DNA of 64,000 nucleotides from Thermodesulfovibrionales bacterium (GTDB lineage Bacteria > Nitrospirota > Thermodesulfovibrionia > Thermodesulfovibrionales > SM23-35), in assembly GCA_963716185.1 (NCBI GenBank), contig OY970295.1, positions 2,808,356-2,872,355 of the forward strand, read 5' to 3'. The notes beneath the pieces are model-generated. The model ran no database searches. It was not told the DNA's origin and was given only the letters and a program-made list of their open reading frames with translations. The translations under genes were made by a program, and so were the position numbers. This document shows positions 19,428 through 62,306 of the stretch, in pieces (within the stretch, counting starts at the first letter, position 1; every line of letters begins with the position of its first letter).

Positions 19428-21875
19428 TCAGTTGGCGCCGGACAGGATAGATACGGCTTCCTCGGCTTCGACAAATGCGGGCTTGTCGCCTTCGAGAACA
19501 ACTTTTATCTTATGGACGCTCTTAAATTTCCCTATCAGTATTTCCTCGGAAAGCGGATCTTCTATGACTTTCTGGACAGCCCTCCTCATCGGACGCGCGC
19601 CATATGTAGGCTGGTAGTACTTCTTTATCAGCCATTCTTTGACTTCCTGGGCGACCTCGATAACGAGCTCCTGCTGTTCGATCAACAATCTGTTTGTCTC
19701 TTCAACGAGCAGGTCGATAATCGAAAGGAGATGCTCCTTTTCCAGAGGATGGAATACCACTATCTCGTCCACGCGGTTCAGGAATTCAGGATTGAATGTC
19801 TTTTTCAGTTCATTCAAGACGTTTTCTTTTATCTTTTCATAGACCATCTCGGATATATTTCTCTGGAAGCCAAGGGGGGTCGCTTTCTCGATCAACCTCG
19901 CTCCAAGGTTTGAAGTCATGATTATCACGGTATTCCTGAAATCCACTTTTCTTCCAAAACTGTCCGTCAGCACCCCTTCATCAAGTACCTGAAGTAATAT
20001 ATTAAAGACATCGGGATGGGCCTTCTCAATCTCGTCAAAGAGGACAACGGAATAAGGTTTTTTTCTGATTCTCTCCGTCAGCTGTCCGCCTTCTTCATAT
20101 CCAACATAACCCGGAGGGGCCCCGGTCAGCCTTGACACATTAAACCTTTCCATATATTCCGACATGTCTATCTTGACAAGTGAAGATTCATCGTTGAACA
20201 GAAACCATGCGAGGGCCTTGGCGAGTTCCGTCTTGCCGACGCCCGTCGGACCGAGGAAGAAGAAAGAGCCTATAGGCTTCTTGCTGGATTTGAGCCCGGC
20301 CCTTGATCTCCTTATTGCTCTGGAGACCGCCTTTATCGCCTCTTCCTGCCCGATGATCCTTTTGTGAAGATTATCCTCCATCCGGATAAGTTTCTCCGAC
20401 TCCTTCTCTTCCAGTTTCACAAGAGGTATGCCGGTCATCTTGGAGACCGTATATTCGATATCCTCTTCCCTTACATAGGGTATTTCCTTGCTCAGATTAT
20501 CGACCCACTGCTTGTGCAGTTGTTCGTGGAGCCTTTTGAGCTTTTCTTCTTCCAGACGCAGGGACGACGCTTTCTCGAGGTCATGAAGCTTTATATAAAG
20601 ATTCTTCTCTTTCGAAAACCTGTGGATATCGGTCTCCAGGTCTTTGAGTTCCTGCGGGGGGGTATATCTCTTCAGTTTAATCCTTGAGCCCGTCTCATCG
20701 ATAACATCAATGGCCTTGTCAGGCAAATATCTGTCCGCGATATACCTGTCCGACAACTTCGCCGCGATTTCAACAGCGGAATCATTTATTTTGACTTTAT
20801 GGAAAGCCTCATATCTGGACTTCAGACCCTTGAGGATACTTATCGTATTTTCGACATTCGGCGGCTGCACGTATATCGGCTGGAACCTGCGTTCCAGTGC
20901 GCCGTCTTTTTCTATGTGTTTTCTGTATTCATCGGGTGTCGTCGCGCCTACACATTGTATCTCCCCGCGGGAAAGCGCGGGTTTAAGCATGCTCGATGCA
21001 TCGACGGAACCCTCCGCCGCGCCCGCCCCGATCAGCGTATGCAGCTCATCTATAAAGAGTATGACATTGTCCGACTGGGTGATCTCTTTCATCACGATCT
21101 TGAGCCTTTCCTCGAACTGTCCCCTATACTTTGTTCCGGCTATCAGCGCCCCGAGGTCAAGCGATACGATGCGTTTTCCCAAAAGGCTGTCAGGCACATT
21201 GCCGGAAACGATCTTCTGGGCAAGCCCTTCAACTATCGCGGTCTTTCCGACTCCGGGCTCTCCGATAATAACAGGGTTGTTCTTGATCCTTCTGCCGAGT
21301 ATCTGGATGAGACGTTCGATCTCGTCTTCCCTGCATATCACCGGATCGAGTTTCCCCTCTTTGGCAAGCTGAGTCAGGTCCCTACCGAATTCGTCAAGCG
21401 CAGGTGTCGAGCCCCTTTTGTCTTTTACCTGTGTGTGTGCCCTTATCGAAAAATTAATGGTGAGCTGCCTTGCGCCTAAAAGGTTGGCGCCAAAGCTTCT
21501 CAGGATTTTGCCGCCGATACCTTCTTCTTCTCTGATCAGGCCGAGAAAGATATGTTCGCTTCCGATGTAGTTGTGGCCGAGCAGCCTCGCTTCCTCTACA
21601 GCGAGTTCGAGGACCTTTTTGGCCCTGGGAGTAAACGGAATGTCCCCGAAAGTCATGATGTTGGTCCCCTGGGGGAGGTTCCTTTCGACTTCCAAACGGA
21701 CTTCCTCAGGGGTAATTCCCATTCTCTTGAGGATCGCCAAGGGCAGGCCGTCTTCTTCTTTCAGGACCGCAAGTAAAAGATGCTCCGTGCCGAGATAATC
21801 ATTTTGACGCCTCTCGGCTTCCTCTTTTGCATAAATGATTACTTTTCTGCCGCGTTCTGTGAACTTCTCAAACAT
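19428..21875 (-). CDS. clpC: ATP-dependent Clp protease ATP-binding subunit ClpC-type (class I AAA+)
   Basis: 815 aa. Clp_N repeats (GTEHLLLAVL, GSEHIFLGLI), two Walker A motifs (GEPGVGKT, GPTGVGKT) and a middle UVR-like coiled coil. Confidence 0.92.
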   Translation of the reverse strand: MFEKFTERGRKVIIYAKEEAERRQNDYLGTEHLLLAVLKEEDGLPLAILKRMGITPEEVRLEVERNLPQGTNIMTFGDIPFTPRAKKVLELAVEEARLLGHNYIGSEHIFLGLIREEEGIGGKILRSFGANLLGARQLTINFSIRAHTQVKDKRGSTPALDEFGRDLTQLAKEGKLDPVICREDEIERLIQILGRRIKNNPVIIGEPGVGKTAIVEGLAQKIVSGNVPDSLLGKRIVSLDLGALIAGTKYRGQFEERLKIVMKEITQSDNVILFIDELHTLIGAGAAEGSVDASSMLKPALSRGEIQCVGATTPDEYRKHIEKDGALERRFQPIYVQPPNVENTISILKGLKSRYEAFHKVKINDSAVEIAAKLSDRYIADRYLPDKAIDVIDETGSRIKLKRYTPPQELKDLETDIHRFSKEKNLYIKLHDLEKASSLRLEEEKLKRLHEQLHKQWVDNLSKEIPYVREEDIEYTVSKMTGIPLVKLEEKESEKLIRMEDNLHKRIIGQEEAIKAVSRAIRRSRAGLKSSKKPIGSFFFLGPTGVGKTELAKALAWFLFNDESSLVKIDMSEYMERFNVSRLTGAPPGYVGYEEGGQLTERIRKKPYSVVLFDEIEKAHPDVFNILLQVLDEGVLTDSFGRKVDFRNTVIIMTSNLGARLIEKATPLGFQRNISEMVYEKIKENVLNELKKTFNPEFLNRVDEIVVFHPLEKEHLLSIIDLLVEETNRLLIEQQELVIEVAQEVKEWLIKKYYQPTYGARPMRRAVQKVIEDPLSEEILIGKFKSVHKIKVVLEGDKPAFVEAEEAVSILSGAN

Positions 21876-24476: not shown

Positions 24477-24719
24477 ACCTGAACGTTGCAAAAAAGGTAA
24501 AGCAGATATACTCAAAAACTTTGCAACTCGACAAGATGTCATTGTGAAACGTGTGGCCGCATTCTTAACCTTTTATGCCTTTTGCAGGAAGCCTCCGCCA
24601 ACATTCAGGTCTCTGCGGTGTCTCAGTGCCCAGGCCTTTTCATCATATCCGCCTTCCAATTTCGAACAAATCTTATGCAGGTAATGGGTGGATCTTTCGG
24701 GTTTCAACGATTTGTTATA

Positions 24720-24728
24720 TGATATAAT
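24720..24728 (+). promoter_or_regulatory. candidate extended -10 promoter (TGnTATAAT) for the tRNA pair
   Basis: tgatataat lies ~32 nt upstream of the tRNA-Gln 5' end. No convincing -35 element. Confidence 0.35.
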
Positions 24729-24759
24729 ACTTTTTAATTTTTTCGTTCTATCGCTTTGT

Positions 24760-24833
24760 TGGGGAGTCGTCCAGGGGCAGGACGGCAGACTCTGGATCTG
24801 CTTACAGGGGTTCGAATCCTCTCTCCCCAGCCA
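24760..24833 (+). tRNA. tRNA-Gln (anticodon CTG)
   Basis: Hand-folded cloverleaf: acceptor TGGGGAG/CTCCCCA, D stem GTCC/GGAC, anticodon stem GCAGA/TCTGC with loop CTCTGGA, T arm AGGGG-TTCGAAT-CCTCT, encoded CCA. Confidence 0.9.
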
Positions 24834-24837
24834 ATTC

Positions 24838-24913
24838 GGTCCCATCGTCTAGAGGCCTAGGACGTGGCCCTCTCAAGGCTAAAACACGGGTTCGAATCCC
24901 GTTGGGACCGCCA
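24838..24913 (+). tRNA. tRNA-Glu (anticodon CTC); integration target of the downstream islands
   Basis: Hand-folded cloverleaf: acceptor GGTCCCA/TGGGACC, D stem GTCT/GGAC, anticodon stem TGGCC/GGCTA with loop CTCTCAA, T arm ACGGG-TTCGAAT-CCCGT, encoded CCA. Confidence 0.9.
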
Positions 24914-24926
24914 ATAAAATCAATGA
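24869..24926 (+). repeat. att copy A: 3' 45 nt of tRNA-Glu plus 13 nt downstream (left boundary of island I)
   Basis: The same 58 bp recur perfectly at 37092-37149. Confidence 0.9.
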
Positions 24927-24927
24927 G

Positions 24928-26005
24928 TTATGCCTCATTATAGGCCGCTACATTTAAGGACTGTGCCCCTTTTTGTGCCCCCGACTTCATATCTAATACA
25001 GAAATAGCCTCTCTCAGGTTTTCAACTGAAAGATGAGCATATCTCTGAGTCATGCGGATATCTTTGTGTCCAAGCAATTTTGAGATTGTGTGAAGGTCAA
25101 CGCCTCTTTGTCTGAGATAACTCGCAAAAGTGTGTCTGAGGTCTGAGATCGTGGAAATGAAAGTTTTCTATTCCGGCAACTTCACACGCCTTTTTAAATA
25201 CCCGTTGAAGTTTAACTGGATATATTCTCTTACCGTTGTTGTGGAAGACGAAGTCTTCAATATCCTTTACTTTTTGCATTTCCCTGAATGTCTCAATTGC
25301 TTCAATCGTGAGCGGTAGCCCGATGCTCTCTTTGTTTTTCATTAGAGCGCCCTCGATTACCAAACACCGGGAAAAGAGATTTAGCCATGACCACTTCATG
25401 TTGAGAAGATTTGATTCTCTTAGACCTGTGTTAAGTGCGATTATCACTATAGATTTCAGCCATGCGGGGGCTGTCTTGTCATCGAGAGCATTAAACAGCC
25501 TGCCATATTCATCTTCACTGAGATACCGGACACGCTCATTTTTAACTTGCGGCATTTCGATTGAGTTTACAGGATTGTCCTTGATCCATTTCCATTTTTT
25601 AATGGCGACATTGAACATTCGTTTGAGAAGTCCCATTTCTTTTACTATTGTTGCGGGCATAATCCCCTTGGAATATCTATAACTCTCGTACTCTCCGATA
25701 AGTCTTTCAATGTCCTGTAACTGAGTGTCCTCTCCGAAGTAGGCTTCCAAGTGTTTAAAGATGCTTCTATCCCTTGCCTGATATTGTCTCCTTGAAGTGT
25801 ATTCGGCATCATATTTCTCAATCATCTCTTTTAGCGTTCTTCTTCGAGCCTCAATCCCAAACCATTCGCCTTCTGCAAGTTCATTTAAGACTTTTATCTC
25901 GATTTTTCTGGCAAGTTCCTTACTGCTTGTACCAGTTGACTTTCTTATTAATTTTCCTTGCCATTTAATCTTTATCCACCAGACTCGGCCCCTCTTTAAA
26001 AGCAT
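24928..26005 (-). pseudogene. tyrosine recombinase / phage-type integrase, frameshifted by a 7-bp tandem duplication
   Basis: The track ORF 25097..26005 ends ...HFHDLRPQTHFCELSQTKRR. Deleting one copy of gtctgag (25134-25140 / 25141-25147) restores HDLRHTFASYLRQRGVDLHTISKLLGHKDIRMTQRYAHL..., which carries the catalytic His and Tyr, down to a stop at 24928-24930. Confidence 0.85.
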
Positions 26006-26105
26006 TACATCACCTCCCTCTTGAGGTGGTCTGGTCTCCCTTTACGGGAGTATAAATTGACCTTGCCCCCCAAAACCTCCACGGGGGCAAAAAAAGGATG
26101 AATTT

Positions 26106-26457: not shown

Positions 26458-26610
26458 GGACGGAACCCCCCCGCTTGTATGCCTTGCTCAGATTATCGAG
26501 ATTCATGAGAACGATAAACTGTCGGTCAGGGATATTGCAAAACAAACCAAGATACCCCGTTCAACAGTCTTCAGAACAATTAAGCAGTTTAAAGAGGGGG
26601 ATTATTGATA
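26458..26610 (+). pseudogene. fragment of a small helix-turn-helix protein (no usable start codon)
   Basis: Hand translation: ...LAQIIEIHENDKLSVRDIAKQTKIPRSTVFRTIKQFKEGDY*. This is an HTH pattern, but the frame opens right after a stop and has no ATG/GTG/TTG. Confidence 0.4.
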
Positions 26611-28949: not shown

Positions 28950-29550
28950 AGGTAAGCCACTGGTTTGACCAGTGAGACTATAAAAGGTTTGACCTTGCAG
29001 GATTAAGTAAGATAAACCTCCAGAGAGGCTTGACGGTAGTCAAAGTCTATCTGGAGGTTTATGGATAGTTACAAGAGATTAACACACTCGAAGTACGATT
29101 GTAAGTATCATGTGGTATTTGTTCCCAAAGGTCGGAAGAAAACGCTCTTTGGGAAAATCAGGAAGTATCTGAAGGGAGTATTTCACGAATTGGCGCGGCA
29201 GAAGGGATGCGAGATCATTTCTGGGCACATGGCGATGGATCATGTGCACATGTGTATTTCGATTCCGCCGAAATACTCTGTCTCAGAGGTGATAGGGTAT
29301 CTGAAGGGCAAGAGTGCAATAGCCGTGGCACGGCAATTTGGAGACAAGCAGAGGAATTTCAATGGAGAAAACCTTTGGGCTCGCGGATATGCTGTGTCAA
29401 CGGTTGGCTTTGAGCTGGACAAGATCAAGGAGTACATTGCCCATCAGGAAAAGCTGGACAATGAACAAGAAGAGGGCAGGTTTTAGTATAAACCCAAACG
29501 GCCGTCTTTGAGACGGCTCATAACCGTCAAGCCTCCCTCTTTGAGGGAGT
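28950..29550 (+). mobile_element. IS200-type insertion sequence (tnpA only) with terminal hairpins; boundaries approximate
   Basis: Left hairpin cactggt-ttg-accagtg (28958-28974). An 11-bp stem aaacctccaga/tctggaggttt (29014-29024 / 29050-29060) covers the SD next to the ATG. Right hairpins are gccgtct-ttg-agacggc (29501-29517) and ctccctc-ttt-gagggag (29533-29549). Confidence 0.8.
29061..29486 (+). CDS. tnpA: IS200/IS605-family Y1 (HUH) transposase TnpA
   Basis: 141 aa. YDCKYHVVFVPKGRKK, HMAMDHVHMCISIPPKYS (HUH) and WARGYAVSTVG (catalytic Y). Confidence 0.92.
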   Translation: MDSYKRLTHSKYDCKYHVVFVPKGRKKTLFGKIRKYLKGVFHELARQKGCEIISGHMAMDHVHMCISIPPKYSVSEVIGYLKGKSAIAVARQFGDKQRNFNGENLWARGYAVSTVGFELDKIKEYIAHQEKLDNEQEEGRF

Positions 29551-36618: not shown

Positions 36619-37091
36619 AGAGTCCCTCCTTCAATATTGGTTGAGAGAAAGTATATCAAGAAGAAAGAATATAAACAAAAGGGGGAGAGCGGATCTTCCC
36701 GAAACTATTCAAGTTAAAAGAGGCTGGTGCGGTTATCGTGGGTTACCGATCGAGAGGGGAAAATTCCGCAGGGGCGTAAAATTACGTTTTCGTTAAAACT
36801 GGATCAGGGAAAAATTTTAAAATTTTGGCTACCTTCAAACTGGGGAAAAGCCGTTCTCCCGCTTTTTACTTTTTTGCTAAAGCAAAAAGTTCCCGAAATC
36901 TACCAAAACAAATTCGTTGACCTGCCAAAAGTATCTAAAAGACTGTGCCCCTTTTTGTGCCCCCTTAGCATGGAAAATAAGAGAAAATAATAGACACATT
37001 AGACACAATAGAAACTATAGAAATGGCTTAAAATAAGGCTTTGAAGGGAGACCAGCCACTATCAACGTTTTACAGAAAATCGCTTATTCGT

Positions 37092-37149
37092 CCTCTCAAG
37101 GCTAAAACACGGGTTCGAATCCCGTTGGGACCGCCAATAAAATCAATGA
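37092..37149 (+). repeat. att copy B: perfect 58-bp repeat of the tRNA-Glu 3' segment (island I / island II junction)
   Basis: cctctcaaggctaaaacacgggttcgaatcccgttgggaccgccaataaaatcaatga is identical to 24869-24926. Confidence 0.9.
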
Positions 37150-37716
37150 CTTACAACGTTTCTGCCTGTATCTTCTCATCTAAACGTGAAGAAAACGTGA
37201 AGTTGAGCTTCGACATTGCACTTCTCAACGAGTCTACATTGAGGTGTGCTAAAACCGTCAGTATTGCTCTCCTCCGAACAGAGAATAGGTTCCTGCTGTC
37301 CGTCAAAGAGGGTTCTCATAGTATCTTTTATCGCTTCATAAGTTCGAAATAATGTGCCGAAACAAATAGAATAGGATAGTCACCACTGAAAGAAAAACCA
37401 TACCCGAGACAGATAATATTCCTCTTAGAACATTTCTTAGATCTTCTACGGAGAGGCGTCCGGCCCACAGCAGTTGTATGAATGGCCACAGTATGTGCGG
37501 CGTTAGTTTCATCCTAATACGCATTTTGAACATGGGTCATTAGGTGAAGATTATTCTCGGAAATGTGCAGTCGAGGGGTTGCCGCGTTTGTGACTTCCGC
37601 CTATCGATACAGGTGATAAAATAAAATATATATCATATGGTCACAAGACTATCAAAGATTTCCTTGGGCACGGTAAAGATGGAATAGAATATAACGTTTT
37701 CAGTACCGGATCGCAT

Positions 37717-38965
37717 ATGAATAGGAAACAAGCACACATTCGGCATACTCCTAAATTAGGAGCTTTAGAAATCCTTAAATATATAGGGCCTGGATTTATT
37801 GTAACTGTCGGTTTTATAGATCCAGGAAATTGGGCTGCAAATGTAGCTGCCGGATCAATTTATGGATACAACCTTCTCTGGATGGTCACTCTCTCTACTA
37901 TCATGCTTATATTTTTACAGCATAATGCCGCACATCTGGGGATTGTTACCGGACTCTGCCTTGCTGAGGCTTCTACAAAATTCTTGGGTAAATGGATGAG
38001 CAGGGTATTCTTAGTCAGTGCAGTATTCGCAGCTATATCTACAGCTTTGGCAGAGATTCTTGGGGCTGCTATAGGGTTAAATATGTTATTCGGGATACCC
38101 CTTATTATCGGCTCATTTCTTACATCTATATTGGTCATCTGGATGCTCATTTCCAACAGTTATAGAAAATTAGAAAAATGGATTATTGGTTTTGTTGCAC
38201 TTATAGGCTTTCATTCATTATTGAATTAATTATCGTAAAATTCCAGTGGTATGAGGCTCTTAAGAACGGTTTTGTACCTTCTTTTCCTTTAGGCTCTATT
38301 CCAATTATCATGAGCGTTCTTGGAGCTATAGTAATGCCACATAACTTATTTTTGCATTCCGAAATCATCCAGAGTCGGCAATGGAATCTTCAAGATAAAC
38401 AGATTATAAGAAGGCAATCTAAGTTTGAATTTACAGATACACTCACTGCAATGGTTGCGGGATGGGCGATAAATAGCGCGATGATAATTGTAGCTGCATC
38501 AGTTTTTCATTCCCACGGGATAACCGTTACGGAACTGTCACAGGCGGAAGCAACTCTTAAACCACTTGCAGGAAATGCTTCTGCAATTATTTTTGCTCTC
38601 GCGTTAATCTTTGCAGGTTTTTCTTCATCAATTACAGCAGCACTGGCCGGTGGAAGCATTTACTCAGGCATTTTCCAAGAGCCCTTTGATATCTCTGATA
38701 ATCATTCACGCATAGGTATAATGTAACTACTTTGGGTGCTCTTCTTATTATTTTCTTCATCAGAGACCCTTTCCAGGGTCTTATCTGGAGCCAAATTGCT
38801 TTAAGCATTCAACTCCCGTGGACTATTTTCGCACTTATTTCCCTTACTTCGTCTTCCAAAGTCATGGACGACTTTTCCAATAGTAAAAGTAATAAATTAT
38901 CTCTTTGGTTCATCGCTGCTATAGTTTCTTTTTTGAATGTAATGCTGCTTATTCAGATAATCTAA
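37717..38965 (+). pseudogene. mntH: NRAMP-family divalent metal transporter, broken by two frameshifts
   Basis: Three consecutive track ORFs in different frames (37717-38229, 38178-38726, 38732-38965) together spell an NRAMP protein (GPGFIVTVGFIDPGNWAANVAAGS..., MPHNLFLHSEI...). Confidence 0.8.
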
Positions 38966-51341: not shown

Positions 51342-52489
51342 CCACTAGTGTAATGTCCCACTAATATCTTGACAATAATGGTTTATTGTGGTAAACTTTT
51401 TTTATGTGGGAAAAGGCAAACGCGTTGAAGATGACAAACGACCAGCGTGCGACATTGGAAGCTTGGAATCGGGCGAAGACCAGCCCTCAGCGAACGGTTC
51501 TACGGGCGCGCATTTGCCTGTTGGCGGCGGACGGCCTGTCGAATAACGCTATCGCCGCCCAACTGTCCACCTCCCGCCCGACAGTAATTCAATGGCGCAA
51601 ACGTTTTGAGGAGCACGGACCGATTGGATTGGCTGAGGACGCACCCCACGGCCCGAGTCCTCAGGCTCTTCCACTGGACCGAGTGAAGGCCATTATCGAG
51701 GCTACTCTCCACACGACCCCTCGCGATGCCACGCATTGGTCCGTGCGTTCGATGGCCAAGGCCCAGGGGGTCGGGAAGTCCACGGTGCAACGGATATGGG
51801 ACGCGCACGGTCTTCAACCCCATCGAATCGAGACATTCAAGTTGTCCAAGGACAAGCGGTTTGTCGAGAAACTGACGGATGTGGTTGGAGTATACCTGAA
51901 TCCTCCGGACAAGGCGGTGGTGCTGTGCGTCGACGAGAAAAGCCACGTTCAGGCATTGGACCGGACGCAGCCCGGCTTGCCGATGAAAAAGGGGCGATGC
52001 CGAACCATGACCCATGACTACAAACGCAACGGCACCACATGCCTATTCGCGGCATTGAACGTGCTGGAGGGTAAGGTCATTGGCTCCTGCTATCCGAGAC
52101 ATCGCAATATTGAATTTCGGAAGTTCCTGCGACAGATCGACGCAGCTGTGCCCGCAGAGTTGGCCATCCACATGATTTTGGACAACTATGGCACCCACAA
52201 CCACCCCAAGGTCAAAGCGTGGCTGGAAAAACATCCGCGTTTTCACCTTCATTTCACGCCGACCAGTTCATCGTGGTTGAACTTGGTGGAGAGATGGTTC
52301 GGAGAAATAACGCGGAAACGCATTCGGCGCGGAGTTTTCCGAAACGTCCCGGAACTCGTCGCGGCAATCGAAGATTTCATCCATATCAACAATGAGAATC
52401 CAAAGCCGTTCGTCTGGACGAAAAAGGTCGATGCTATATTGGAAAAGGTCGCTCATTGTAAAGCCGTTATAGGGACACTACACTAGTTG
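51342..52489 (+). mobile_element. IS630-family insertion sequence
   Basis: Terminal inverted repeats actagtgtaatgtccc (51344-51359) and gggacactacactagt (52472-52487), with 15/16 complementary. Single transposase ORF. Target duplication not resolved. Confidence 0.8.
51404..52486 (+). CDS. IS630-family DDE transposase
   Basis: 360 aa with an N-terminal HTH. VLCVDEKSHVQAL, DYKRNGTTCLFAAL, MILDNYGTHNHPKVKAWL, TPTSSSWLNLVERWF. Confidence 0.92.
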   Translation: MWEKANALKMTNDQRATLEAWNRAKTSPQRTVLRARICLLAADGLSNNAIAAQLSTSRPTVIQWRKRFEEHGPIGLAEDAPHGPSPQALPLDRVKAIIEATLHTTPRDATHWSVRSMAKAQGVGKSTVQRIWDAHGLQPHRIETFKLSKDKRFVEKLTDVVGVYLNPPDKAVVLCVDEKSHVQALDRTQPGLPMKKGRCRTMTHDYKRNGTTCLFAALNVLEGKVIGSCYPRHRNIEFRKFLRQIDAAVPAELAIHMILDNYGTHNHPKVKAWLEKHPRFHLHFTPTSSSWLNLVERWFGEITRKRIRRGVFRNVPELVAAIEDFIHINNENPKPFVWTKKVDAILEKVAHCKAVIGTLH

Positions 52490-55381: not shown

Positions 55382-55635
55382 GATAATATGATAATCCTTT
55401 ATGTGTGCCTTTTGTCAATACAATAATTCAGCATAAGAGCTCCGAGTCCCCTCTGTTTGTGAATCAGGTAGACCTACTGAATCTCATAAACGCACCGTGA
55501 AGAAAACGTGAAGTAAACATATCTAAAACGATATAAACATATCGAAACATATAGAAGAGGGGAGGGCGGTGAAAAGCTTAATCTGCAAGGGTTTTTCCGG
55601 TATTTTCAAGCACTTGTCAGATCCTGCCTTTAACT

Positions 55636-55689: not shown

Positions 55690-56054
55690 TTAATAATTAC
55701 GGTATCTTTCCTTATTTAAAACCATTCTACGGAATGCTAAGAAATTCGTCGAATGAGTATTCATTTTGGTGTTTTTGTTGGTGTTTTAGAAATAGCGGCT
55801 CCAGTCGAGTCTGGTGATGACTTCTTAGCTTTTGGGGACGACGTGGGGATGACGTAGCGTCGTCTTCAGAGATGAGTGCACGGCTACGGACAGTGAACGA
55901 TTAAGTCCTGTCTGCTCGTCTCTTTACGAAAGGAACACCTCTTCCTCACATTGACCGATGTAATTAACACCTCCTACAAGCAGAGAATTTTATAAATCGG
56001 GGGACTTATTTATTTCCAAAAGAATATTTGGTATAAAGCTGAGTTTCAGAATAC

Positions 56055-58286: not shown

Positions 58287-58667
58287 AAGCTTTTATCAGC
58301 AATTCGATTATCTTTCCTTCTCTCAAGTTACTCTTAGTTTCAGCGCATACGGGAAAAATGTCAATCCTACCGGGGTAGGGATGGTCGAGGCCCTTCTTAA
58401 CTTAAGACTTGGTAAATTCGTTATCTATTTTTATTTGTACTCGTGAGAATTGTCGCAGGCGCAAGGGGTGTTTGTAACAGAAAGGAAGGAGGTATTATTG
58501 AAAAAAAGATCTTGATTGGTGTCATTTTCGAGCCGAACTAATTTAGGTCGTACTCGATCCCACCGCATCGCCTCAGTTAAAAAGGATGCTGCGACGCAAC
58601 TGGCCCTTTTGGTGTTTTTTGGGTGTCACTACTTATAACTAATTGATAAATAAAGAATGGCGAAGCT

Positions 58668-58721
58668 CTCTCAAGGCTAAAACGCGGGTTCGAATCCCGT
58701 TGGGACCGCCAATAAAATCAA
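58668..58721 (+). repeat. att copy D: 54-bp repeat of the tRNA-Glu 3' segment, 1 mismatch (island III / IV junction)
   Basis: ctctcaaggctaaaacGcgggttcgaatcccgttgggaccgccaataaaatcaa. Confidence 0.88.
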
Positions 58722-59142: not shown

Positions 59143-61100
59143 CCCATCTTCAACACTTCGCCAAAAATAATTTAGGAATAACAATAAGTTACGAGGGGGG
59201 GAAATAGGCGTGGCACTATGAAATGATCTATTCTTATGTTTTATGAGCATCATCTTAATCAAACCGTACTCTTATCGTCCGTGCTCATAATTCTCACAGT
59301 TGGTGGAACAGCTACCCCCGCTGCCTGAAATGCCTTGCCGGCATCTCCCTTCAGTTCGCTCCTGAGAAGAACTTCCTTGCCGCCGGTCTGTATCCTGATT
59401 TCTTTCACTTCCTCAAGATCATTCATAAGGTCTGCCCATTCTACCTGCCATCCTCTTTGATCCATTCGTCTCTGCAATTCCTTGATAAGAAGGAGTGACA
59501 GGAAGCTGCAAAATACATGGCCCCGTATTGTCTCATCACATTTGTGGTATATCGGTCGGGTACTCAATATGCTCTTCATAGTACGGAATATCTGCTCCAC
59601 CATCCACAGTTGTTTGTATTGAAGCGCTACCTCACGGGATGGCAGATCCGAATTAGTCGTTAATACCCATTTGCCGTCATACCGGGATTCTTCCTTTATC
59701 TTCTCTTCGTCTATTTGAAACCTCGTCCCCGTAAGCTTGAGATATTTCCTGTATCCTTTATTGCCGACCAGTGCCTTCTCGCTCCGTTTGATTTTATCCT
59801 TTAAGGTGGCAATGATCGTCTCCCTGTCCAAGGCGTCTTTCTTGGCTTGGTCTTCATTGAGACAAATAATATATCGCCTGTCTTTGGCTATGACCTCTTT
59901 GACTTTCAGCGGCGACGGGGACTTGCTGTGCGTTCCTTTCGGATACACCTCCTCATAACGGCCACCTCGCCCCATGACTTCTTCTTTCACCTCTTTCTGC
60001 CGTCTCATCCTGACCCCTAAAATATATTGTATCCCTTTCGTCCTCTCTATCTCTTTGATCGTCTCTTTGCTGATCATTCCCCTATCGGCCACTATACAAA
60101 CCCTCTGTATCGCAAACCGGCTCCTTAATCGATCCATCACCGGCAGCAACGTCTTCACATCTGTCGTATTGCCGGGCCAAAGCTCACAGCATATCGGCCT
60201 GCCTTCATTGTCTATGATAATCCCTACGACCATCTGCTTCAGATCAGGCCGATGATCCTTTGAATGCCCATAGGCCCCGATCTCCTCCCCTCCGTTTCCC
60301 TCAAAATAGATGCTCGTCGTATCAAAAAACACCAGGGTGAGGTCTCTGAATAAACTCCTCTCCCTTTGAAATATCCCCTCTTCGATCAGGTCCTTTATGC
60401 ATCTCGGTGCAAACGGCGTCGCCCCTTTTTGTTCTTCCTCCGGCAGCTCTTCCCCAAGCCATGCCATCGCCCTGTACAAATGATGAAGGTCTATCTTCTC
60501 CGTCCCGGCAATCTTGTACTGCTCCTTCCACTTCTCCGCCGCCCGGTCAGAGCCCGATACGCTTAATCTGTGCAGCACAGTTAAGAAGATCGCTCGCTCT
60601 ACCGGAAACTGATACTTCCTCTCCCCCAACAACTCTTCGATCACACACTGTATCCCAGTATCTTTCCATAACCGTCCAAATACCATAGGTATACCGACTT
60701 TTGCATCTTCCACTGAGGGAACAACGCCTTTTTCATAGGAGTCAATGATTGCCAGTTTTTCGGAAAAGCGCACCCCAGACCGCAGGAGACTGTCGAGTTC
60801 CCCTGTTTCTTCCAACCTGTCAAGGCGTCCCAAGGTGCCGATAACCTTTTGCCGGACATGTCCCTTATCCCATATGCTCTTTACGATTTGAATATATTTT
60901 CTTGGACCGGATGGCTTTATCCTGATAAACATAGCATTAGTATTATAGGTATTTAAGCACGACATTTCAACCTAATAATGCTATCAACGTGGCACTATGT
61001 TTGACCCTTATTCTCATTTGCTTTTCTCGTAAGTAGGCTTAAATACTGGGTTTCCGTCTTTGAGGTGTCGCTTTTTTAGGGGGCAACTGTTGAAAATGAG
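59143..61100 (-). mobile_element. IS1634/IS4-type insertion sequence (1958 bp)
   Basis: Terminal inverted repeats cccatcttcaacacttcgcc (59143-59162) and gggcaactgttgaaaatgag (61081-61100), with 15/20 complementary. 5-bp direct target duplication CCTTA (59138-59142 and 61101-61105). Confidence 0.8.
59259..60965 (-). CDS. IS1634/IS4-family DDE transposase
   Basis: 568 aa. The N-terminus FIRIKPSGPRKYIQIVKSIWDKGHVRQKVIGTLGRLD is typical of IS1634-type enzymes. D...D...E blocks (FFDTTSIYF, IVADRGMIS, ...YKQLWMVEQIFRTMK). Confidence 0.8.
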   Translation of the reverse strand: MSCLNTYNTNAMFIRIKPSGPRKYIQIVKSIWDKGHVRQKVIGTLGRLDRLEETGELDSLLRSGVRFSEKLAIIDSYEKGVVPSVEDAKVGIPMVFGRLWKDTGIQCVIEELLGERKYQFPVERAIFLTVLHRLSVSGSDRAAEKWKEQYKIAGTEKIDLHHLYRAMAWLGEELPEEEQKGATPFAPRCIKDLIEEGIFQRERSLFRDLTLVFFDTTSIYFEGNGGEEIGAYGHSKDHRPDLKQMVVGIIIDNEGRPICCELWPGNTTDVKTLLPVMDRLRSRFAIQRVCIVADRGMISKETIKEIERTKGIQYILGVRMRRQKEVKEEVMGRGGRYEEVYPKGTHSKSPSPLKVKEVIAKDRRYIICLNEDQAKKDALDRETIIATLKDKIKRSEKALVGNKGYRKYLKLTGTRFQIDEEKIKEESRYDGKWVLTTNSDLPSREVALQYKQLWMVEQIFRTMKSILSTRPIYHKCDETIRGHVFCSFLSLLLIKELQRRMDQRGWQVEWADLMNDLEEVKEIRIQTGGKEVLLRSELKGDAGKAFQAAGVAVPPTVRIMSTDDKSTV

Positions 61101-61338
61101 CCTTAGTGATAATCCTTTTTATGGTGAAGCCATCCCGGGGTTAGAAGGAAAGGTATTTAAGGCGCGTCTTGCAAGTTCGGATATGAAAAGCGGGAAAAGT
61201 AAAGGCTATCGCATAATCTGTTACGCTCTGATAAAGGAAAACACCATCTACTTGCTTACTATCTATGATAAGGCATATAAAGAAAACATCTCGGCGGGAG
61301 AAATTAAAGAAATAATTTTAAAATATGGACTTTAAACC

Positions 61339-61364
61339 AAGGGGCAAAATAGAACCGTCCCCTT
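61339..61364 (+). terminator. hairpin aagggg-N14-cccctt followed by a T-rich run, downstream of the toxin 3' part
   Basis: Read directly. 6-bp stem, then tatttctgtt. Confidence 0.35.
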
Positions 61365-61428
61365 TATTTCTGTTCGATGATAATGAGCGTATCGCTGAGT
61401 CATTCTGCCGTCCCTGTATCTCAAGAGT

Positions 61429-61617
61429 TTACCCTTCCGATTTCATTCTTGGTGCCTGCTGTTTCAGTCGTTCTGGCAGCCATACCTTTATGAGCGACTG
61501 GTAAGGCACATCTCGTTTATTTGCCTCAATGCGTATCGCTTCAAGGAGCGAGAGAGGTAGCCGCAAGGAAATGGATTGAGTAGAAGGCTTCAGATCCGGG
61601 AAACGGGCGCGAACCAT
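61429..61617 (-). CDS. brnA: BrnA-like (CopG/RHH) antitoxin, second copy; start uncertain
   Basis: ...FPDLKPSTQSISLRLPLSLLEAIRIEANKRDVPYQSLIKVWLPERL. Family-like sequence (KKLKAIPKFKSEAEERRFWETHDTTEYFD) continues upstream in frame to 61740, but with no canonical start codon. Confidence 0.55.
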   Translation of the reverse strand: MVRARFPDLKPSTQSISLRLPLSLLEAIRIEANKRDVPYQSLIKVWLPERLKQQAPRMKSEG

Positions 61618-61883: not shown

Positions 61884-62306
61884 TTAGGATATCAAGTGAC
61901 TCTTCAGCTGCAATTTGCAAAGGCGACGGTCGGAAGAAACAAAAGTCACATTATCGCGCTTCAGGTTCAGGGCTATTGCAAGCTGAACACTGTCAACCGG
62001 TTTCATGTATCTTTTCAGAATAAGATCCTCGGCTTTGATAATGTCTTCTGCAGATACGTCGAGGATAGTAATATTAAGAGCACCGATATCCTGGTAGAAG
62101 AAAGTGCGTTGCTTCAAGAACTGTTCCTCTGTTGTGATCTTGTCGATTTCACAAAGCCTCTTCAGGTTGGAAATGATTTCAATAATAGTTATCGAAGATA
62201 TGAAGATAGGATCATCGGATTCTTCGAGTATCCGGGAGACCAATGCGGTCCCTTTCTCGGCCTGGTATCTTTTGAATAAAGCGCTTGTGTCTATGAAAAA
62301 GGGCAT
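61884..62306 (-). CDS. vapC: PIN-domain toxin VapC
   Basis: 140 aa. MPFFIDTSALFKRY (first acidic residue), later ISSITIIEI and ...FVSSDRRL. Confidence 0.8.
   Translation of the reverse strand: MPFFIDTSALFKRYQAEKGTALVSRILEESDDPIFISSITIIEIISNLKRLCEIDKITTEEQFLKQRTFFYQDIGALNITILDVSAEDIIKAEDLILKRYMKPVDSVQLAIALNLKRDNVTFVSSDRRLCKLQLKSHLIS

Follow-up and report, generated by a model that had tools for sequence, protein, structure and literature searches.

A frameshifted tyrosine integrase in a tandem island array at tRNA-Glu looks like an ordinary pseudogene rather than a mobility switch

Described systems and the array at tRNA-Glu

Inactivation is frequent among the integrases of genomic islands, and it fixes the islands in the chromosome. 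The phenomenon is known, and a single locus of this kind matters little when taken alone. Tandem accretion of elements at one att site, including integrase-less elements referred to as 'cis-mobilizable', has been described in work on streptococcal ICEs (PMC5704250, PMC7563491). Frameshifting repeats have been described in other settings as well. According to PMC11163986, which cites Waite et al. (2001), the pneumococcal type 3 capsule gene cap3A is switched by tandem duplications within its open reading frame (ORF), and the simple-sequence-repeat contingency loci of Haemophilus and Neisseria consist of tetra- to heptanucleotide tracts (PMC4235727). The locus presented here can be compared with each of these systems, and it resembles all of them in part.

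The window, by which is meant the whole 64-kb stretch of DNA that was analyzed, contains an array of islands at a tRNA-Glu(CUC) gene (Table 1). Island I has the features of a tRNA-linked island, namely a tRNA gene with an att repeat, an integrase encoded next to that tRNA, and a G+C content that is foreign to the core. The 58-bp repeat ends at 24926, leaving one base between att copy 1 and the integrase stop codon. An Rfam scan of the window returned two tRNAs and nothing else. Set against the accretion arrays of streptococcal ICEs, four att copies, all in direct orientation, here bound three islands that differ in cargo and have their own pairs of end motifs. Also as in such arrays, a near-complete integrase gene is present only in the tRNA-proximal island, and islands II and III have att sites without an integrase. 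The differences are that no conjugation or mobilisation genes are seen and that the last integrase is itself broken. Since this one remaining integrase is broken, mobilisation in cis cannot currently occur.

A motif built of tandem heptamers is found as a pair in each island; it is specific to the element and has the same orientation at both ends. The pair of island I is listed in Table 1. In island II, CGTGAAGAAAACGTGAAGT lies at both ends (37185-37203 and 55496-55514; 36 and 122 nt from att), and TTTTGGTGTTTTT..GGTGT lies near both ends of island III (55764-55784 and 58607-58626). The island I motif encodes GAQKGAQ, a stretch that is also kept in the closest relatives of the integrase (P0001, P0003, P0004 and P0006). 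The end motifs look like arm-type integrase binding sites. These element-specific heptamer motifs at both ends of each island are the most useful by-product of the analysis.

Table 1. Features of the island array and of the island I integrase, with positions in the window
Feature	Position or length	Strand	Remarks
tRNA-Gln(CUG)	24760-24833	+	Rfam
tRNA-Glu(CUC), integration target of the array	24838-24913	+	Rfam; just before the integrase 3' end
att copy 1 (attL of island I)	24869-24926	+	Runs from the tRNA-Glu anticodon loop and extends 13 nt beyond the 3' end of the tRNA
Out-of-frame integrase 3' part	24928-25133	-	Repaired residues 289-356 and stop; contains LLGH (H311) and RYAH (Y320)
GTGCCCCTTTTTGTGCCCC, candidate arm-type site of island I	24963-24981	+	Inside the integrase 3' tail, 37 nt right of att copy 1
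Truncated integrase ORF, 302 aa	25097-26005	-	Arm-binding-like N-terminus, SAM-like core-binding domain, catalytic domain up to HDLR
7-nt tandem duplication (CTCAGAC twice on the coding strand)	25134-25147	-	Integrase codons Leu287-His289; downstream frame +1
Excisionase-family (HTH_17 / TIGR01764) remnant	26005-26043	-	Last 12 codons 26043-26008 (...GRPDHLKREVM) and a stop overlapping the integrase ATG
GTGCCCCTTTTTGTGCCCC, second copy, other end of island I	36945-36963	+	129 nt left of att copy 2
att copy 2, boundary of islands I and II	37092-37149	+	58/58 identical to copy 1
Island II integrase C-terminal remnant	37154-37315	-	Profile positions 322-351, E 8e-4; directly beside att copy 2
att copy 3, boundary of islands II and III	55636 to about 55686	+	Most diverged; four or five mismatches to copy 1
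att copy 4, right end of island III	58668-58721	+	One mismatch to copy 1
Another integrase remnant, KLLRYRDGRMTQRYAH	61335-61442	-	E 5e-6; beyond att copy 4
Island I	12.2 kb		G+C 35-41% (core 46-50%); broken integrase, Xre regulator, IS200-type transposase, PAS, HD, SEC-C and HU proteins
Island II	18.5 kb		Split Nramp gene, hydrogenase-type small subunit, PLD enzyme, phosphoketolase, P-type ATPase, M50 protease, IS630-type transposase, others
Island III	3.0 kb		Histidine kinase and HD-GYP response regulator

Several other observations concern the array and its contents. Transposase genes of three different IS types lie in or next to it (IS200-like Y1 at 29061-29486, IS630-like DDE_3 at 51404-52486 and IS4-like DDE_Tnp_1 at 59259-60965), as would suit a region in which mobile DNA gathers. 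The core gene for a ClpA/ClpC-type AAA+ Clp ATPase (19428-21875) and non-coding DNA of island I share CCTTGCTCAGATTATCGA, an 18-nt direct repeat without mismatch (20486-20503 and 26482-26499); by our own estimate, about 0.03 such exact 18-nt matches are expected in 64 kb. The Nramp-type metal transporter gene of island II is broken up into a pair of ORFs that overlap (37717-38229 and 38178-38726), with the change of frame near GGCTTTCATTC (about 38208-38218) fitting the loss of 1 nt beside a T run. The same gene is apparently truncated at its 3' end too, at profile position 288 of 357. The split could represent either a real pseudogene or a homopolymer error, and some indels of the assembly could be errors.

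To survey integrase genes, a profile made from 100 full-length relatives was run against all six frames of the window. It matched the two pieces of the island I integrase and two short remnants; no further integrase genes were found by this search in the 64 kb. The remnant beyond att copy 4 is neighbored by the IS4-like transposase gene, a RelE-like gene (61060-61335) and a PIN toxin gene (61884-62306), and no tRNA-Glu-like repeat was found near it. The preliminary description of this DNA had called the island I gene the only integrase of the array, a statement that is right for near-complete genes and needs amending for the remnants. Older integrase copies have left traces in the window.

The integrase gene and its upstream neighbor

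The lesion of the island I integrase is a tandem duplication of 7 bp. On the plus strand, GTCTGAGGTCTGAG comprises GTCTGAG twice in immediate succession (25134-25140 and 25141-25147), with AAAGTGT to its left and ATCGTGG to its right. When the window was scanned for this 14-mer with at most one mismatch allowed, it was matched only here, against 0.01 matches expected from shuffles. The heptamer periodicity covers exactly two units, and the repeat is preceded by T and followed by A. A separate third GTCTGAG is present at 25110-25116. As for the origin of the duplication, slippage by way of microhomology was considered and set aside, as the junction (T before, A after) has none. A 9-nt repeat of the unduplicated gene, ATCTCAGAC, whose copies are 24 nt apart, was rejected as well, since it predicts a change of 24 nt and not of 7.

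Both the presence of this duplication and the shift of frame directly past HDLR had been reported in the preliminary description, and both are borne out, the latter by translation of the minus-strand ORF. The native protein reads ...IENFHFHDLR, continues as PQTHFCELSQTKRR and then stops. Its tail after HDLR counts 14 residues, where 20 had been given. The 302-aa product retains R196, the Lys region at MKNK, H285 and R288, and in agreement with the earlier account it has neither the His of LLGH (H311) nor the Tyr of RYAH (Y320), so that a single polypeptide with a complete active site is not encoded. With no second His and no nucleophilic Tyr, the native product would be unable to cut or rejoin DNA. 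From the established chemistry of tyrosine recombinases, it is predicted to be catalytically dead.

Deleting one heptamer copy in silico gives an integrase of 356 aa that ends with a stop codon at 24930-24928 and reads ...HDLRHTFASYLRQRGVDLHTISKLLGHKDIRMTQRYAHLSVENL... across the repaired site. The key residues R196, H285, R288, H311 and Y320 are then all present, the motifs falling at 285-289 (HDLRH), 308-311 (LLGH) and 319-322 (RYAH), and the protein aligns with XerC-like, XerA, XerD and lambda integrase structures through HxxR, LLGH and RY. The Pfam domains of the integrase are Phage_integrase (PF00589), a SAM-like domain and Int_N. Against PF00589, the native product scores 82.2 bits (cut-off 27.1) over profile positions 2-133 of 172, which places it in the family, and the repaired product scores 138.9 bits over positions 2-170 of 172. 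The earlier claim that removal of one copy restores a full-length recombinase ending at 24928 beside the att repeat therefore holds, and its own check, the return of the C-terminal catalytic motifs with the frame, came out in its favor. As it stands, the locus appears to be a pseudogene of an integrase rather than an active PF00589 member.

In its domain layout the gene is like the tyrosine (lambda-type, 'phage') integrases of tRNA-linked islands, and it adjoins a tRNA gene, the 3' part of which recurs at the opposite end of the island. In contrast to those integrases, however, the series R...K...HxxR...H...Y is complete only after repair, the native gene being frameshifted with the active-site His and Tyr gone. 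A further difference is that the excisionase-family gene that overlaps the integrase from upstream in its relatives is deleted here. In two related contigs (L035 and L036), this gene encodes 82-83 aa, overlaps the integrase start codon, is matched by Pfam HTH_17 and passes the NCBI excisionase-family model TIGR01764 with 63.7 and 45.8 bits (cut-off 28.8). In the window, just its last 12 codons are matched and the remaining part is absent by tblastn. The frame upstream of the 12 codons is full of stops, and homology to L035 ends at 26063. A crude scan found no sigma-70-like promoter upstream on the integrase strand. Since the xis-like gene has been cut to 12 codons, a 7-nt reversion would not rebuild the original xis-int module. 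The loss of the excisionase-like gene is thus a second lesion of the recombination module, and one that is non-revertible.

Relatives and the age of the lesion

The nearest full-length relative of the integrase (P0001) has 357 aa, is 81% identical and is encoded on L035, a JGI contig. This contig is syntenic with the window, with TPM-domain genes and tRNAs followed by the integrase, and its nucleotide identity is 83% over window positions 24717-26063 and 77% over the TPM genes. At the site of the lesion it reads CATGATCTTCGTCACACC, a single copy in frame, and its 357-aa integrase is intact. The motif HD[LCF]RH is likewise without insertion in all 22 related loci in which it could be located. 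The heptamer repeat occurs at this site in none of about 100 related loci from genomes and metagenomes, which were retrieved mainly through a C-terminal peptide pattern. The 120 best relatives include no protein from the source contig itself (3.58 Mb), which makes it unlikely that a close paralogue could act in trans. In a scan of genome contigs, which did not recover the source genome, the best match was 61% identical. The names that the best relatives bear suggest a lineage that is probably Nitrospirota-like.

The part of the gene that is now out of frame has not drifted: compared with L035, residues 289-336 show 11 synonymous changes and a single non-synonymous one (dN/dS 0.02). For the part upstream of the lesion, the same comparison gives a dN/dS of 0.13. 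Together with the perfect 58-bp att pair, this points to a recent lesion and to a recent arrival of island I.

In other metagenomes, related copies of the integrase carry lesions of their own. A 2-nt AG tandem duplication is found at the same Arg288 codon in L079 (3108-3135), and 1 nt is lost from an A run near codon 297, about 9 codons downstream, in L088 (about 1745). At L021:5001 (the same as L083:3001), an integrase remnant begins exactly at codon 289, and five further loci (L019, L066, L068, L080 and L023) have integrase copies truncated at the 5' end. These frameshifts and truncations amount to the same decay reached by other routes. The recurrence of codons 288/289 in the window, L079 and L021/L083 raised the idea of a mutational hotspot, which was treated as coincidence. 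Such a hotspot is not established, because the loci were retrieved by a C-terminal pattern, tblastn matches often start at box II, and the other lesions lie elsewhere.

Alternative readings and meaning

A real, recent frameshift that abolished the function of the island I tyrosine integrase is, in our assessment, a highly probable account of the locus. The 7-nt tandem duplication would have hit the box II (HxxR) region of the integrase of island I, which is the youngest of at least three islands arrayed in tandem in tRNA-Glu(CUC) and the one proximal to the tRNA. The shifted frame comes to its stop 14 codons on, sparing the DNA-binding domains, the first catalytic Arg, the Lys and HxxR. Frameshift and loss of the excisionase-like gene together would fix island I, and hence the whole array, in the chromosome. 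The older islands of the array and the relatives in other genomes show this decay at more advanced stages. One heptamer copy could be lost precisely by chance, with nothing to indicate that a switch has evolved.

This account presupposes that the duplication is real. An artefact of sequencing or assembly, in which case the true genome would have a single copy and an intact integrase, had been offered as an option in the preliminary description. Judged by the relatives and the run accession, the source is apparently a metagenome assembly, and the Nramp gene within the array (37717-38726) is split beside a T run, which is a typical context for long-read errors. However, the 302-aa product is on record both from the NCBI/ENA contig of 3,585,087 bp and from the Logan assembly of run ERR12035932, a separate assembly made with a different assembler, possibly from the same reads as the deposited genome. 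The Logan contig (L001, 1167 bp) is 100% identical to window positions 24897-26063, the 14-mer included, and on the left it reaches 30 nt into the 58-bp att repeat, which is what a k=31 graph should give. Moreover, the core genes scanned over about 24 kb upstream are all unsplit and match almost the whole length of their Pfam profiles, which shows that indel errors are uncommon in this assembly; among them are genes for a ClpA/ClpC-type AAA+ Clp ATPase, a starch synthase, a PAS/GAF histidine kinase, MoeA-PBP, NlpC/P60 and glutamate kinase. Base-calling or consensus errors also do not typically take the form of a clean tandem copy of 7 nt in sequence that is otherwise non-repetitive. Given the same 14 nt in the Logan contig and the full-length core genes nearby, an artefact is unlikely. 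As a separate observation, the Logan contig ends at 26063 as well, where homology to L035 stops; the sample may hold a second sequence that diverges at this point.

If the duplication is real, it could still be reversible. The preliminary description had proposed an on/off switch for island mobility, in which the heptamer is gained and lost by slippage and the integrase, and with it the mobility of the array, is turned off and on. The duplication is perfect, exact loss of one copy restores a flawless gene, the downstream catalytic segment is undamaged and the att sites of island I are perfect. In cap3A, moreover, there is a precedent for duplication as the off state and reversion as the on state (PMC11163986), and the present duplication is likewise a perfect one within an ORF, whose exact loss would turn the gene on. 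The likeness to cap3A ends at the second lesion, since the loss of the excisionase-like gene is not reversible and reversion of the heptamer alone would probably not bring back regulated excision; nor were reversion or a mixture of alleles seen in the collections searched. The cap3A duplications are reportedly longer than the 7-nt one described here. Turning to simple-sequence-repeat contingency loci, a short tandem unit in a coding region shifts the frame in both cases, but theirs are long tracts kept across strains, whereas here there are two copies in one genome. Contingency loci are marked by many tandem units and by a repeat tract that varies in length among orthologues or strains; exactly two units are found here, and a tract in 0 of the 22 loci with a locatable motif and in 0 of the roughly 100 loci overall, so this is not a site that was shaped as a contingency locus. 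They are also marked by on and off alleles within one population. On this point, an exact-sequence look-up did not find the repaired protein in a collection of 15 billion proteins, there is no other cluster of more than 90% identity, and either allele used as a DNA pattern gave 0 matches in JGI metagenomes. With the promoter scan negative and the neighborhood clearly decaying, the proposal of an evolved switch is not upheld, and we rate it improbable. A bolder form would have the duplication act as a reversible off state that gates excision of up to about 34 kb, or else have the 302-aa product shield the att and arm sites from related incoming integrases; this is slightly more doubtful still. 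If the off-state reading were true, the sole integrase able to act on the four near-identical att sites would be re-armed whenever, on rare occasions, one copy was lost exactly.

Two further alternatives accept the duplication and assign it another effect or origin, and both are considered very improbable. The ribosome could bypass the lesion by a low-level +1 slip on U UUU G, four codons past the duplication, yielding a trickle of active integrase. The shifted frame has CAC UUU UGC at this point, where tRNA-Phe could pair again in the original frame, at +1, and for one ICE the excision activator is reported to be controlled by programmed +1 frameshifting (PMC4755241). However, no other genome shows this arrangement, so that there is no conserved recoding signal, and the orthologues are read in a single frame through the region. 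No stimulatory element was identified either, and the product would read HDLR-PQTH-FAS in place of HDLR-HT-FAS, with two residues inserted right after the catalytic Arg. The +2 lesion of L079 at the same codon would, in addition, need a slip in the opposite direction. The other alternative regards the duplication as the footprint of a transposable element that duplicated 7 bp of its target site on insertion and whose subsequent excision left the two copies behind. That the two copies abut without microhomology at the junction, and that three IS-type transposase genes lie in the window, would agree with this. Yet the IS families present do not fit a 7-bp duplication, as IS200-like elements produce no target-site duplication, IS630-like elements duplicate TA and IS4-like elements produce duplications longer than 7 bp. 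Excision that leaves the duplication intact is unusual in bacteria, and no element is present at this site in any relative.

Overall, the locus looks like an ordinary integrase pseudogene in a decaying tRNA-Glu array, and not like a mobility switch. Were both alleles to occur in the reads, it would instead be a rare example of a mobility switch based on a duplication. As a pseudogene, it belongs to a tidy decay series that can be dated: island I has a fresh frameshift and a lost excisionase-like gene, island II has a short C-terminal integrase remnant, and island III has none. The series could be used as a small case study of the way in which tRNA-linked arrays of an uncultured bacterium lose their mobility.
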